The notes under the pieces are model-generated. The model was not told the origin of the DNA, did no database searches, and worked only from the letters and a program-made list of their open reading frames with translations. From Candidatus Copromonas avistercoris (nom. illeg.) (GTDB lineage: Bacteria; Bacillota; Clostridia; Lachnospirales; Lachnospiraceae), in the NCBI GenBank assembly GCA_018713185.1, contig DVFQ01000072.1, forward strand, positions 1 to 51,397: 51,397 nt of DNA. Reading direction: 5' to 3'. Positions within the stretch are counted from its first letter, which is position 1, and each line of letters opens with the position of its first letter. A program made the translations under genes and the position numbers. Positions 15,999 to 20,136 of the stretch are shown one piece after another.

Positions 15999-16775
15999 AT
16001 GAAGGTAGTTATTCTTGCAGGCGGATTTGGAACCAGGATCAGCGAAGAGAGCCATCTGAAGCCGAAGCCGATGATCGAAATCGGAGAGCAGCCGATCCTG
16101 TGGCATATTATGAAATATTATTCCCAGTTCGGATATAATGAATTTATTATCTGCCTGGGCTATAAGCAGTATGTGGTAAAGGAATATTTTGCCGACTATT
16201 TCCTTCATACCTCGGATGTCACCTTTGACCTGACCAATAACTCGATGAAGGTTCACAATAATTACGCGGAGCCGTGGAAGGTGACGTTGATCGATACCGG
16301 GCTTTATACCATGACCGGCGGGCGGGTAAAGCGGATCCGTCCCTATGTGGGAGACGAGCCGTTTATGCTGACCTACGGCGACGGCGTAGCCAACGTGAAT
16401 TTAAAGGAACTGGAGGAGTTCCACAAGAGCCACGGAAAGATCGCCACGCTTACGGCGGTGAATATTGGCCAGCGGTTCGGCGTTTTGGATCTGGACGACG
16501 CCGGGAAGATCCAGGCCTTCCGGGAAAAGGACGATGACGACGGAAGCTTGATCAACGGCGGATTTATGGTCTTAAATCCCGGCGTGTTTGATTATATCGA
16601 GGGAGACGAGACGGTCTTTGAGCAGGAGCCGCTGCGGAATCTGGCGCGGGACGGAGAACTGATGGCGTTCCGTCATGAGGGTTTCTGGAAATGCATGGAT
16701 ACTCAGCGGGAAAAGCAGCAGCTGGAGGTAATGTGGCAGTCGGGAAAGGCGCCCTGGAAGATCTGGAAAGGATGA
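15999..16775 (+). CDS. rfbF: Glucose-1-phosphate cytidylyltransferase
   Basis: MKVVILAGGFGTRISEESHLKPKPMIEIGEQPILWHIMKYYSQFGYNEFIICLGYK is near-canonical RfbF/DdhA. Confidence 0.92.
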   Translation: MKVVILAGGFGTRISEESHLKPKPMIEIGEQPILWHIMKYYSQFGYNEFIICLGYKQYVVKEYFADYFLHTSDVTFDLTNNSMKVHNNYAEPWKVTLIDTGLYTMTGGRVKRIRPYVGDEPFMLTYGDGVANVNLKELEEFHKSHGKIATLTAVNIGQRFGVLDLDDAGKIQAFREKDDDDGSLINGGFMVLNPGVFDYIEGDETVFEQEPLRNLARDGELMAFRHEGFWKCMDTQREKQQLEVMWQSGKAPWKIWKG

Positions 16776-16778
16776 CCT

Positions 16779-17948
16779 ATGGAGAAGGACATTTTAGAAT
16801 TTTATAAGGGAAAACGGGTGCTGGTGACCGGGCATACCGGATTTAAGGGGAGCTGGCTTTGCCGGATCCTTGTAAACGCGGGGGCGGCGGTGACCGGCTA
16901 CGCCCTCGAGCCGCCGACGGAGCCGGATCTCTTTTCTATGGCGGGACTTGAGGGAAGGATGGAGTCGGTCATCGGCGATATCCGGGATCTGGAAAAACTA
17001 AAGAAGACGTTCGAGGCGGCGCAGCCGGAGATCGTGTTTCACCTGGCGGCGCAGCCCATTGTCCGCGATTCCTACAAGGATCCGGTTTATACCTATGAAA
17101 CCAATGTCATGGGAACGGTTCATATTATGGAATGCGCCCGGCTGTTTCCCTGCGTCCGTTCGCTTTTGAATGTGACGACGGATAAGGTATATGAAAACCG
17201 GGAATGGGAATACGGGTACCGGGAAACGGACCGGCTGGACGGCTATGATCCCTACTCCAACAGCAAATCCTGTTCAGAGCTGGTGACCCACAGCTATAAA
17301 AAATCCTTCTTTACGGACGGGCGGTGCGCGGTTTCCACCTGCCGGGCCGGAAACGTGATCGGCGGCGGAGATTTTGCCAACGACCGGATCGTTCCCGACT
17401 GTGTCCGGGCGGCGGTGAAGGGAGAGGCCATTGTGGTCCGGAATCCTTATTCCACCAGGCCGTATCAGCATGTTTTGGAGCCGCTGTTTGTATATCTTCT
17501 TATCGCCATGGCCCAATATGAGGATCCTTCCTTTGCTGGATATTATAATGTGGGGCCCGACGATGAGGACTGCATAACAACAGGCCAGCTGACGGATCTG
17601 TTCTGCTCGGCCTGGGGCGGGGGCGTATCCTGGATCAATCAAAGCGACGGCGGCCCCCATGAGGCCAATTTTTTGAAGCTGGACTGCTCGAAGATAAAAA
17701 AGGTGTTCGGATGGCGGCCGGCGTTCCATGTGCGGGAGGCTGTGGAGCTTTCGGCTTTGTGGTATCGGACCTGGGCTGAGGGCGGCGAAGTGACGGCGGT
17801 TATGGACAGCCAGATCCGGCGGATGTTTTCGCCCGGGAGAAATCTGGCTGAAAAAGATTTGGCTGAAAAAGATCTGGCTGAAAAAAATCTGGCTGAAAAA
17901 GATTCGTCCGGAAAAGATGGAGGAAATGAAATATGTTTGAGAATATGA
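16779..17948 (+). CDS. rfbG: CDP-glucose 4,6-dehydratase with repeat-containing C-terminal extension
   Basis: SDR fold: VLVTGHTGFKGSWL, catalytic YSNSK. A ~40 aa tail with (LAEKD)n lies beyond the usual end of the family. Confidence 0.9.
   Translation: MEKDILEFYKGKRVLVTGHTGFKGSWLCRILVNAGAAVTGYALEPPTEPDLFSMAGLEGRMESVIGDIRDLEKLKKTFEAAQPEIVFHLAAQPIVRDSYKDPVYTYETNVMGTVHIMECARLFPCVRSLLNVTTDKVYENREWEYGYRETDRLDGYDPYSNSKSCSELVTHSYKKSFFTDGRCAVSTCRAGNVIGGGDFANDRIVPDCVRAAVKGEAIVVRNPYSTRPYQHVLEPLFVYLLIAMAQYEDPSFAGYYNVGPDDEDCITTGQLTDLFCSAWGGGVSWINQSDGGPHEANFLKLDCSKIKKVFGWRPAFHVREAVELSALWYRTWAEGGEVTAVMDSQIRRMFSPGRNLAEKDLAEKDLAEKNLAEKDSSGKDGGNEICLRI
17842..17916 (+). repeat. 15-bp in-frame tandem repeat (about 5 copies) at the 3' end of rfbG
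   Basis: ATCTGGCTGAAAAAG / ATTTGGCTGAAAAAG / ATCTGGCTGAAAAAA / ATCTGGCTGAAAAAG / degenerate ATTCGTCCGGAAAAG, encoding LAEKD repeats. Confidence 0.9.
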
Positions 17949-19285
17949 CGGAGGGTCAGGCGCGCCGGGAGATCCTGGAGGCGGTGGCCGAATACGCAAA
18001 AAAGTTTCATGAGCAGAAGAAAGAATTCCATGAGGGCGACCGGATTCCCTACGCGTCCCGGGTCTATGACCATGAGGAAATGGTGAATCTGGTGGACAGC
18101 GCTTTGGAGTTTTGGCTGACCTCGGGCCGCTACACCGAGGAGTTTGAGAAAAAGCTGGCGGATTATCTGAAGGTTCGCTACTGCTCTCTGGTCAATTCCG
18201 GTTCCTCGGCGAATTTGATCGCGTTTATGGCGTTGACTTCGCCGCTTTTGGGGGACAGGCGGATTGGCCGCGGCGACGAGGTTATTACCGTGGCGGCCGG
18301 ATTCCCGACGACAGTGACGCCGGCGATCCAGTATGGAGCGGTGCCGGTATTTGTGGATGTTGCGATCCCCCAGTATAATATTGACGTAACCAAGCTTGAG
18401 GCTGCCCTTTCGGAAAAGACGAAGGCGGTAATGTTGGCCCATACGCTGGGAAATCCCTTTGACCTGACGGCGGTAAAGGAGTTCTGCGACGCCCATGGTC
18501 TTTGGCTGGTGGAGGATAACTGCGACGCCCTGGGGACGGTCTATGAGCTGAAGGGAGAAAGAAAATTTACGGGAACCATCGGCGATATCGGCACCTCCAG
18601 CTTTTATCCGCCCCATCATATGACCATGGGTGAGGGCGGAGCGGTCTATACCGACAATCCGCTGTTAAATAAGATCATCCGCTCCTTTAGGGACTGGGGA
18701 CGGGACTGCGTCTGCCCGTCGGGACACGACAATGTCTGCGGCCACCGGTTCGACAGGCAGTACGGCGAGCTGCCGTTAGGATATGACCATAAATACGTAT
18801 ATTCCCATTTTGGATACAATCTGAAGGCGACGGATCTGCAGGCGGCCATCGGCTGCGCCCAACTGGATAAGTTCCCGTCCTTTGTGGAAAAGCGGCGCCA
18901 TAATTTCGCCCGTCTGTGGAAAAACCTGGAGGATACCCAGGACCAGCTGATCCTTCCGGCGGCGGCGGAGCATTCCGAGCCCAGCTGGTTCGGCTTTTTG
19001 ATCACCTGCCGGGAAGGCGTGGACCGGAACCGGCTGGTGCGGTATATTGAGAGCAAAGGCGTCCAGACCCGGATGCTGTTCGCGGGGAATCTGACGAAGC
19101 ATCCCTGCTTCGATGAGATGAGAAAAACCGGCGGGGGCTACCGGATCGCAGGCGGTCTGGAAAATACGGATCGGATCATGGCGGATACCTTCTGGATCGG
19201 CGTTTATCCGGGAATGACCGATGAGAAGATCGACTATATGGCCCGGGTGATCAAGGAAGGACTTTCGCAGCAGAAAGAGGGATAG
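17933..19285 (+). CDS. rfbH: CDP-6-deoxy-L-threo-D-glycero-4-hexulose-3-dehydrase (E1, RfbH/DdhC type; PMP and [2Fe-2S])
   Basis: DegT/DnrJ/EryC1 fold with His replacing the Schiff-base Lys (SFYPPHHMTMGEGG). Cys cluster DCVCPSGHDNVC (C-x-C-x7-C) is typical of E1. Confidence 0.88.
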   Translation: MFENMTEGQARREILEAVAEYAKKFHEQKKEFHEGDRIPYASRVYDHEEMVNLVDSALEFWLTSGRYTEEFEKKLADYLKVRYCSLVNSGSSANLIAFMALTSPLLGDRRIGRGDEVITVAAGFPTTVTPAIQYGAVPVFVDVAIPQYNIDVTKLEAALSEKTKAVMLAHTLGNPFDLTAVKEFCDAHGLWLVEDNCDALGTVYELKGERKFTGTIGDIGTSSFYPPHHMTMGEGGAVYTDNPLLNKIIRSFRDWGRDCVCPSGHDNVCGHRFDRQYGELPLGYDHKYVYSHFGYNLKATDLQAAIGCAQLDKFPSFVEKRRHNFARLWKNLEDTQDQLILPAAAEHSEPSWFGFLITCREGVDRNRLVRYIESKGVQTRMLFAGNLTKHPCFDEMRKTGGGYRIAGGLENTDRIMADTFWIGVYPGMTDEKIDYMARVIKEGLSQQKEG

Positions 19286-19290
19286 GGATT

Positions 19291-20136
19291 ATGGCACAGG
19301 CATCCTTTGACCTGACAAAGGTTCATCAGGCGAACTTAAAGATGTTAAAGGAGATCGACCGGATCTGCCGGAAATATAAGCTTCAGTATGCGCTGGACTC
19401 GGGAACGCTTTTAGGGGCGGTCCGCCACGGCGGATTTATTCCCTGGGACGACGACGCGGACGTGATGATGACCCGGAGCAACTATGAAAAGTTCGCGAAG
19501 GTGGCGAGACGGGAGCTGCCGGAAGGCATGTCCTTCGTGGAGCCCAATGAATATCACGGCGGGAAGGCGTTTTATGATTTCGTCTCCCGGGTGACCTACG
19601 ATAAGAGCCAGAAATTTGAGGAATCAAAGAAGATGGCGTTTTATGACGACAAGATCAGCCGCCTGTGCGTGGATATTTTTGTAACCGACGCGCTTCCGGC
19701 CGGTCCTGTCTCGAAACGGCTTACCAAGCTTTGCCATTGTATCGTGTACGGATTGGCCCTGGGCCATCGGTACGGGCTGTCCCTTTCAGACTATAAAGGA
19801 ATGATGAAGCTGTTCGTCTTTGTCCTTTCCTCTGTGGGGCGGCTGATCCCGTTTCCGGTGATCTACCGGTGTTGGCGCAGGCTTTGCTTAAAGGACCGGA
19901 AGAAAAATTATCCGCTTTATTTTTACAGCGGCTACGCGCCGGATTATTTTTATGTGGAGATGGAAAAGGACTGGGAGGACCAGGTGGAGGAAATGGAATT
20001 TGAAGACACGAAGTTTTACGTGCCCTCGGGATGGAAGCAGCTTTTGACCCAGCTTTACGGGGATTTCATGAAGCTTCCGCCTAAGGAGAAGCAGATTCCG
20101 GAGCATTCCGATATGGAGATACAGATTTATGAGTAA
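19291..20136 (+). CDS. LicD-family phosphotransferase
   Basis: [25 protein letters not shown] is the hallmark LicD nucleotidyltransferase-fold motif. Confidence 0.85.
   Translation: [281 protein letters not shown]

Follow-up and report, generated by a model that had tools for sequence, protein, structure and literature searches.

Conserved linkage of RfbF, RfbG, and RfbH to a LicD-family protein in an operon of gut Lachnospiraceae

Results

Three CDP-sugar enzymes adjoin a LicD-family protein

Contig DVFQ01000072.1 of the Lachnospiraceae bacterium Candidatus Copromonas avistercoris carries four adjacent plus-strand open reading frames (ORFs) at 15999-20136, which encode RfbF, RfbG, RfbH, and a LicD-family phosphotransferase. 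We analyzed the 51-kb stretch in which they lie (51,397 nucleotides; hereafter, the window) and read its relatives at ±10 kb around rfbH. The four ORFs coincide exactly with the coordinates given in a preliminary description of this DNA. They form the distal portion of a compact plus-strand operon of 11 genes (6472-21085), in which the gaps between genes range from −17 to +39 nucleotides (nt). The gene order is a GmhA-like SIS protein, an LtaS-like protein, a 755–amino acid (aa) protein, a 660-aa protein, a lysine/glutamate (K/E)–rich protein, a 502-aa protein, RfbF, RfbG, RfbH, LicD, and a GT2-type glycosyltransferase (GT). The CDP-sugar and LicD portion comprises the following features:

15999..16775, + strand: RfbF/DdhA, glucose-1-phosphate cytidylyltransferase, 258 aa (TIGR02623 equivalog, 409.8 bits versus a cut-off of 300)
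16779..17948, + strand: RfbG/DdhB, CDP-glucose 4,6-dehydratase, 389 aa (TIGR02622 equivalog, 433.6 bits versus 278)
17842..17903, + strand: 15-bp tandem repeat, 4.1 copies, encoding the C-terminal (LAEKD)n tail of RfbG (TRF score 110)
17933..19285, + strand: RfbH/DdhC, E1, 450 aa (NF011936 RfbH, 721 bits versus 423)
19291..20136, + strand: LicD-family phosphotransferase, 281 aa (PF04991, 121.6 bits versus a cut-off of 22.6)

RfbF, RfbG, and RfbH are clear orthologues of the first three enzymes of the Salmonella and Yersinia CDP-3,6-dideoxyhexose pathway. RfbH is assigned as the pyridoxamine phosphate– and [2Fe-2S]-dependent CDP-6-deoxy-L-threo-D-glycero-4-hexulose 3-dehydrase (NF011936, PDB 3bcx), and the Yersinia E1 (3bcx) matches it over its full length (E = 1.7e-152). 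The preliminary description had called it an authentic-looking E1, and the translation bears this out: It contains both SFYPPHHMTMGEGG, with His at the position of the pyridoxal phosphate lysine, and CVCPSGHDNVC. The His that replaces lysine lies within FYPPHHMTMGEGG, and a PPHHMT motif is present. Together with an upstream Cys, CVCPSGHDNVC gives the pattern C-X61-C-X-C-X7-C; the Yersinia E1 counterpart is C-X57-C-X-C-X7-C, 4 residues shorter (manual count from the alignment). The E1 His and all four Fe-S Cys are conserved in 80/80 orthologues.

In the LicD protein, the catalytic aspartate motif aligns with that of FKRP (PDB 6kaj). Its best NCBIfam match is the Mf1 cholinephosphotransferase model (85.6 bits), far under the cut-off of 225. 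The RfbF cytidylyltransferase is encoded three genes upstream in the same operon.

The LAEKD repeat ends just 5′ of the overlapping rfbH start. Its copy number differs between strains: Other contigs of the species encode RfbG proteins of 374, 379, 384, or 389 aa, and deletions of 15 and 45 nt occur at the repeat in metatranscriptome contigs.

RfbFGH-LicD is the invariant core of one of two locus classes

A scan for RfbH using one genome per species yielded 80 loci, all from Lachnospiraceae-type Clostridia and with 76 to 85% identity. Their ORFs were annotated by phmmer, using the window proteins together with proteins from the loci themselves. We divided the 75 assessable loci into class A (n = 33, of which 25 had full flanks) and class B (n = 42, of which 29 had full flanks).

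Class A loci, 33 of the 75, have LicD directly 3′ of RfbH. In 31 of them, the distance from the RfbH stop to the LicD start is −20 to +144 nt, often with overlapping stop and start codons, and LicD is present in every full-flank locus (25/25). Sampling from the LicD side gave the same arrangement, with 6/6 LicD homologues (52 to 100% identity) placed between RfbH and a GT2. The linkage of RfbF to LicD is likewise kept in the 33 species loci and in 6/6 sampled LicD homologues. The coupling of RfbF, RfbG, and RfbH to LicD, which was noted at first for the window, is thus a conserved unit and not an accident. Orthologues span dozens of species at 52 to 85% identity, with conserved gene order.

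The remainder of the class A locus is more variable. A GtrB-type GT2 and GT-C genes are both present in 21/25 full-flank loci and both absent in 4/25, and a SIS gene is found in 18 of the 21 loci that have them. RfbFGH plus LicD is therefore the sole invariant gene set of class A. GT2 and the GT-C genes, joined in most loci by SIS, make up a second sub-module whose members vary together. The four loci that lack GT2 and GT-C belong to [Clostridium] aerotolerans, Lacrimispora xylanisolvens, and two metagenome-assembled Lacrimispora genomes. These minimal Lacrimispora-type loci consist only of a small GT2, RfbF, RfbG, RfbH, LicD, and a lipoprotein, with housekeeping genes on both sides. The small soluble GT2 is present in 21/25 full-flank class A loci and missing from the window and its closest relatives.

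This distribution bears on the idea of a branched pathway, in which LicD would use CDP-glucose or CDP-4-keto-6-deoxy-glucose as its donor, while the product of RfbG and RfbH goes to the GT2 or to the small GT2. RfbF is a bona fide CDP-glucose synthase, and a preference of LicD for one CDP-hexose over another is not readable from its sequence. However, LicD always follows RfbH and never RfbF, and no LicD locus lacks RfbG or RfbH, not even the minimal Lacrimispora module. We therefore consider a branched pathway highly unlikely.

In class B, RfbFGH is followed by an acetolactate synthase–like thiamine diphosphate (ThDP) enzyme and a short-chain dehydrogenase/reductase (SDR), each in 21/29 full-flank loci. 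We read these two proteins as YerE/YerF-like. A distinct GtrB-type GT2 (GT2B) is present in 26/29 full-flank loci, often with GtrA, and some variants have only the YerF-like SDR after RfbH (e.g., L029 and L038). Kineothrix alysoides (L079:8130-15446), L034, L060, and ~20 more class B loci combine RfbFGH with a ThDP enzyme (~570 to 630 aa), an SDR (~310 aa), a GT2, and GtrA. From their gene content, these loci look like a yersiniose-type branched-sugar pathway that feeds polyprenyl-phosphate three-component glycosylation, again without E3. Three class B loci (L035, L056, and L057) have a diverged LicD right after the GT2.

E3 is unlinked throughout the lineage, and a 4-reductase is missing from class A

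The known Ddh/Rfb/Asc pathway proceeds through DdhA/RfbF, DdhB/RfbG, and DdhC/RfbH (E1) with DdhD/RfbI/AscD as E3, and is completed by Abe, Prt, Tyv, or AscE and AscF. We searched the window for the later enzymes using Pfam scans of its 49 larger ORFs, together with motif scans for plant-type 2Fe-2S and ferredoxin-NADP reductase (FNR)–type sites. No protein combining Fer2 with an FNR-type domain was found among the 49 ORFs, and the motif scans of the window were also negative. Nor did these ORFs include a second extended SDR, RfbG being the only one. To this extent, the original statement that the window lacks an E3 and a 4-ketoreductase holds. Similarly, in contrast to the Ddh/Rfb/Asc pathway, no DdhD/E3, terminal reductase, or epimerase was found within 10 kb in 33 related species.

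The preliminary description had also taken the missing E3 as a sign that the pathway is truncated, an argument that the comparison does not sustain. No E3-like ORF, with either a plant-type 2Fe-2S or an FNR signature, was found at any of the 80 species loci (0/80; ±10 kb around rfbH), and these include ~40 with a YerE/YerF-like continuation. Because E3 is also absent at these ~40 loci, which need the E1/E3 product, its absence is a lineage-wide property, and we infer that an electron donor is supplied in trans across the lineage. The same is indicated by the E1 orthologues themselves: Since 80/80 retain the Fe-S cysteines without a linked E3, E1 presumably receives its electrons from a donor whose gene lies elsewhere. 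In Yersinia, where ddhDABC make CDP-4-keto-3,6-dideoxy-glucose as the common precursor, ddhD is always within the cluster (PMC5399914). A survey of flagellar glycosylation islands in Clostridium gives a CDP-paratose set of RfbF, RfbG, RfbH, and RfbS only (PMC13317340).

The absence of a 4-reductase, on the other hand, is specific to class A, and is consistent over its 33 species (±10 kb). YerE, YerF, or an extra SDR was detected in 0/25 full-flank class A loci (phmmer; seeds RfbG, YerF, Gmd, and Fcl), a search with extended-SDR seeds that classical SDRs or aldo-keto reductases would escape. An SDR, YerE, or YerF was also not found within 10 kb across the 33 class A species loci, nor was a YerE- or YerF-like gene found in the window.

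Two sets of candidates for the missing enzymes were rejected. The window oxidoreductases at 3600-6242, 44827-46068, and 46065-47861 are not of FNR/Fer2 type and find no support as E3 surrogates; the first of these is absent in L096. An apparent LicD-SDR fusion (P0071, from L011), which might have supplied a reductase, proved to be a chimeric 2.2-kb public metagenome contig (blastx, translation), comprising an RfbH tail, a LicD truncated at residue 243, and then a FabG-like C terminus.

These results can be set against two further explanations. In the first, the pathway is conventional and dispersed: Genes for an E3-like reductase and for a 4-ketoreductase or epimerase lie elsewhere in the genome, a finished CDP-3,6-dideoxyhexose (of the paratose, abequose, tyvelose, or ascarylose type) goes to a Leloir GT, and LicD is a mere neighbor. 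The visible part of the genome is 51 kb, a small soluble GT2 lies beside RfbF in most class A loci, and the YerF-like SDR that stands alone after RfbH in L029 and L038 indicates that simple reductase versions exist in the family. Nevertheless, all 33 class A species lack an SDR within 10 kb, whereas the tailoring enzymes of class B stay adjacent; the window clade has no small GT2; and LicD adjoins RfbH without exception in class A, many loci having an overlapping stop and start, which argues for functional coupling. A dispersed pathway of this kind is, in our view, improbable.

In the second, the genes are a decaying, O-antigen–like remnant without function. The absence of E3 and of a reductase would fit such decay. 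Yet the ORFs are all intact, the catalytic motifs are retained in 80/80 E1 orthologues, gene order is conserved over dozens of species at 52 to 85% identity, and gut metatranscriptome contigs cover the operon. This explanation is effectively refuted.

A GtrB-type GT2 and three GT-C–like proteins share the operon

The remaining operon genes, six upstream and one downstream of the RfbFGH-LicD portion, are:

6472..7101, + strand: SIS-domain protein, GmhA-like sedoheptulose-7-phosphate isomerase, first operon gene (PF13580 SIS_2)
7091..8953, + strand: LtaS-like membrane protein of the sulfatase/alkaline-phosphatase superfamily (PF00884, 119 bits; weak LtaS match, 40.8 bits)
8969..11236, + strand: 755-aa polytopic membrane protein, probable GT-C (sub-threshold PMT_2 match, 21.8 bits)
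11255..13237, + strand: 660-aa membrane protein, GT-C–like fold with a C-terminal beta-sandwich domain (AlphaFold2 pLDDT 68.7, Foldseek)
13277..14479, + strand: 400-aa protein, N-terminal membrane helix followed by a long low-complexity tail rich in K/E/A/Q (internal tandem repeats)
14463..15971, + strand: 502-aa membrane protein, predicted GT-C fold (AlphaFold2 pLDDT 80.2, pTM 0.84; Foldseek)
20129..21085, + strand: GtrB/ArnC-type polyprenyl-phosphate GT2 with C-terminal transmembrane helices (PDB 5ekp, E = 3e-61; ArnC, E = 3e-39)

The GT2 start overlaps the LicD stop by 8 nt. Synechocystis GtrB (5ekp) matches the protein over residues 5-308, its C terminus is hydrophobic in sequence, and the PgfS model gives 247 bits, below its cut-off.

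The 755-, 660-, and 502-aa proteins are candidate GT-C enzymes, an assignment that draws on weak matches. The PMT_2 match of the 755-aa protein is also flagged as weak in its L096 orthologue, and its motif DYDSLHY is invariant in 13 orthologues; apart from PMT_2, relaxed Pfam scans of the membrane proteins gave only noise. Structural models of the 660- and 502-aa proteins were built using database homologues. For the 660-aa protein, in which an N-terminal DD(LY) motif is invariant, the top 14 Foldseek matches in the PDB are all GT-C enzymes (AftA, STT3, and PglB), though weak (E = 4e-3 to 0.1; TM 0.30 to 0.37). The 502-aa model matches AftA, ArnT, AftB, PglB, and Pmt (probability 0.91 to 1.0; E = 8e-3 to 0.3; TM ≤ 0.43). 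Profile searches of the three proteins against PDB sequences gave no meaningful matches, and hhalign detected no homology among them.

The GmhA-like protein scores 143 bits against the NCBIfam phosphoheptose isomerase model, under the cut-off of 276, and is 65% identical to the GmhA of L068, which adjoins HddC-, HddA-, and GmhB-like genes. NDP-heptose sets (HddC-like nucleotidyltransferase, GHMP kinase, HAD phosphatase, and GmhA) lie 5′ of the GT-C genes at L068:541-5789 and L099:67-3135. The L068 region additionally has a GT1, and the window has the GmhA-like gene alone of this set; its GHMP kinase (29668-30894) was rejected as HddA, with no tblastn match to that of L068. By analogy with the HddC-HddA-GmhB-GmhA genes next to SIS in some class A loci, heptose may be the sugar of the GT2/GT-C sub-module.

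The LtaS-like protein might transfer a phospho-alcohol on the outer side of the membrane. Its gene is not at this position in the related loci that were read (L012, L014, L018, and L096); between the GmhA-like and first GT-C–like genes, the relatives examined have nothing or a small GT2. The 400-aa K/E-rich protein has no Pfam family match. It has a single N-terminal membrane helix and a tail of imperfect 15- to 33-bp repeats, and homologues occupy the same operon position in L018 (253 bits) and L096 (401 aa).

The GT2 raises an alternative for the fate of the CDP-sugar: The GtrB-type enzyme (20129-21085) might load a CDP-derived deoxyhexose onto undecaprenyl phosphate for transfer outside by a GT-C protein, with LicD drawing on a CDP-alcohol made elsewhere in the genome to add phosphocholine or a polyol phosphate. 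The GT2 is a full-length GtrB homologue that is translationally coupled to LicD, and the operon has three GT-C–like proteins, as would befit a GtrA/B/V-type three-component system. In class B, GT2B follows RfbFGH in 26/29 full-flank loci, usually along with YerE and YerF, and is the sole evident cytoplasmic transferase. Characterized bacterial LicDs use CDP-choline or CDP-polyols (PMC4873967). A BCCT (betaine/carnitine/choline) transporter and a Zn-phospholipase-C–like gene that recur near the cluster are a weak point in the same direction. Several observations speak against this route. Four Lacrimispora-type species keep RfbFGH-LicD with no GtrB-type GT2 or GT-C within 10 kb, and the presence of GT2 goes with that of GT-C and SIS, not with that of RfbFGH. 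The window GT2 has no specific kinship to GT2B, scoring 119 bits against it versus 137 bits against another GtrB paralogue in the same genome. No licA/licC, tagD, or tarI-like gene was noticed among the annotated genes of the window and the class A contexts. The constant attachment of this LicD orthogroup to RfbH would also be left unexplained. We thus regard a GT2 consumer as possible, but on the unlikely side.

This bears on the refutation foreseen in the preliminary description, namely a conventional GT for the CDP-sugar together with an E3 and a 4-reductase, adjacent in related genomes or in a partner operon elsewhere. It applies in part, in that the adjacent GtrB-type GT2 is a GT that could use the CDP-sugar, and an enzyme of this kind is the sole evident consumer in class B.

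Genomic neighborhood and expression

Two features flank the operon:

6405..6433, + strand: candidate promoter-like site, TGGAAA / 17-nt spacer / TAGAAT with TG extension (consensus scan only; weak)
21261..21881, + strand: acidic 206-aa lipoprotein, lipobox LALGGC (signal peptide; 3′ of the operon, membership uncertain)

The candidate promoter sits in the 230-nt gap 5′ of the first operon gene. The lipoprotein gene is preceded by a separate promoter-like site (21165-21193; consensus scan), and many class A loci have a homologue in this position.

The operon is covered by contigs assembled from chicken-gut metatranscriptomes, some of which cross the RfbG-RfbH and RfbH-LicD-GT2 junctions. Such coverage fits expression of the genes as a unit, although libraries of this kind may carry over DNA. 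One relative, with a 660-aa protein of 62% identity, has its cluster immediately 3′ of rplK-rplA-rplJ-rplL, just like the window. Because this is the same chromosomal place, we take the locus to be a core feature that is inherited vertically, rather than a mobile island.

An L10 leader RNA (RF00557, 73.9 bits) at 2282-2420 lies 5′ of rplJ, as expected, and is the sole Rfam match in the window. The stretch 3600-6242, which separates the L10/L12 ribosomal protein region from the operon, encodes an 880-aa fusion of a pyridine-nucleotide-disulfide oxidoreductase, a rhodanese, and a nitrite/sulfite-reductase–like 4Fe-4S domain. The fusion gene is not at the syntenic position in L096, whose SIS gene comes immediately after rplL. 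Just 3′ of the cluster, 22009-23787 (− strand) encodes two conserved proteins, a Peptidase_C26 glutamine amidotransferase and a cytosolic Zn-dependent phospholipase-C–like protein. BCCT transporter genes lie near the cluster in several relatives (L040, L049, L098, and L100). These neighbors could hint at choline metabolism near LicD or reflect mere synteny. Further downstream are a secreted 240-aa protein with one or two repeats of cell-wall/choline-binding type (41303-42025, − strand; sub-threshold PF19085) and a 335-aa protein with collagen-triple-helix repeats (43397-44404, − strand).

Discussion

We find that RfbF, RfbG, and RfbH are joined to a LicD-family protein in a conserved gene set of Lachnospiraceae, and this coupling is the strongest part of the finding. 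Since RfbFGH plus LicD is the sole invariant set of class A, and no reductase lies within 10 kb, LicD is a candidate consumer of the CDP-sugar. The conserved context supports a dedicated role for LicD in using this sugar, by transferring hexose-1-phosphate, and suggests that a deoxysugar phosphate may be attached to the cell wall. The LicD route set out in the preliminary description thus gains from the conserved coupling and loses the argument drawn from the missing E3.

The LicD family is known for the transfer of phosphocholine by LicD of Haemophilus influenzae and Streptococcus pneumoniae, of ribitol-5-phosphate by fukutin and FKRP, and of mannose-1-phosphate by yeast Mnn4 and Mnn14. The protein described here resembles the family in its PF04991 domain, its FKRP-aligned aspartate motif, and the adjoining cytidylyltransferase for a CDP-activated substrate. 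It differs in that the adjacent pathway makes a CDP-hexose, and not CDP-choline or a CDP-polyol. LicD-family enzymes transfer phosphate along with the activated group (PMC4873967), and Mnn14, a yeast protein with a LicD domain, transfers mannose-1-phosphate in vitro with GDP-mannose as the donor (PMC9705852). Full-text literature searches found no described RfbFGH-LicD system.

Other known systems share parts of this arrangement. Where the Ddh/Rfb/Asc pathway continues to a terminal reductase, a LicD phosphotransferase comes next in the window, and Wzx/Wzy O-unit machinery is absent. In the CDP-yersiniose pathway (DdhABCD, the ThDP enzyme YerE, and the reductase YerF), YerE and YerF act on the same E1/E3 product in Yersinia (PMC5399914, PMC9306805); class B has its ThDP enzyme and SDR in the position that LicD occupies in the window. 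The operon also resembles three-component glycosylation systems (GtrA/GtrB/GtrV; CsbB/YfhO; PgfS/PgfM; ArnC/ArnT), as a GtrB/ArnC-type GT and candidate GT-C membrane proteins share one operon. Unlike those systems, it has three mutually unrelated GT-C–like proteins, no GtrA-like flippase, and an embedded LicD and CDP-sugar pathway.

We favor a model, to which we assign a probability of roughly 0.4, in which this chicken-gut Lachnospiraceae bacterium has a vertically inherited operon for a cell-envelope glycopolymer, with LicD using the RfbFGH product as a phospho-donor for the transfer of deoxyhexose-1-phosphate. In this scheme, RfbF would make CDP-glucose, RfbG would convert it to CDP-4-keto-6-deoxy-glucose, and RfbH (E1) would remove the 3-OH to give CDP-4-keto-3,6-dideoxy-D-glucose. 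The [2Fe-2S] cluster of E1 would be re-reduced by a donor encoded elsewhere, for which ferredoxin or flavodoxin is a guess. With no YerE/YerF-like or 4-reductase step to follow, LicD would take the CDP-hexose itself or a form reduced by an unlinked enzyme. It would then release CMP and join deoxyhexose-1-phosphate, as a phosphodiester, to a cytoplasm-facing acceptor, for which a lipid-linked sugar or oligosaccharide is the likeliest candidate. The GmhA-like isomerase, the GtrB-type GT2, and the three GT-C–like enzymes might build and export a lipid-linked carrier sugar and install it on a wall polymer outside the membrane.

A more specific version of this model, in which a general ferredoxin or flavodoxin drives E1 and LicD transfers the unreduced 4-keto-3,6-dideoxy-hexose-1-phosphate to a lipid-linked or wall glycan, strikes us as doubtful. 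If true, it would provide the first bacterial LicD with a nucleotide-sugar donor, and a new phosphodiester-linked keto-deoxysugar decoration as a core envelope feature of many gut Lachnospiraceae.

Several points weigh against LicD as the consumer of the CDP-sugar. A 3,6-dideoxy-glycosyl phosphate would be chemically labile. As no 4-reductase is seen, either an unusual 4-keto sugar is transferred or the reductase lies elsewhere. The evident CDP-sugar consumer of class B is a GtrB-type GT2, and the adjacent GT2 of the window could have the same role; the small soluble GT2 of most class A loci could be another consumer, being absent only in the window sub-clade. A bacterial LicD with a nucleotide-sugar donor was not found in the full-text searches. 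CDP-choline, CDP-glycerol, or CDP-ribitol are possible donors for this LicD, and a BCCT transporter and a Zn-phospholipase-C–like gene recur near the cluster.

Lachnospiraceae rank with the most abundant commensals of the gut and, to our knowledge, their wall polymers are almost uncharacterized. The operon occurs in dozens of species, has a conserved place beside ribosomal protein genes, and is represented in gut metatranscriptome assemblies. It thus offers a conserved hypothesis on how the walls of abundant gut commensals may be decorated, for which the evidence is entirely genomic. The comparison also revealed a widespread, apparently yersiniose-like pathway that may feed GtrB-type enzymes in gut Firmicutes. 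Should LicD indeed take a CDP-hexose as its donor, the donor range of bacterial LicD proteins would widen from CDP-alcohols to nucleotide sugars, and the classic E1 radical deoxygenation would run without a dedicated E3 partner in anaerobes. The product would be a new phosphodiester-linked deoxysugar epitope at the cell surface, relevant to phage receptors and to host immune recognition.

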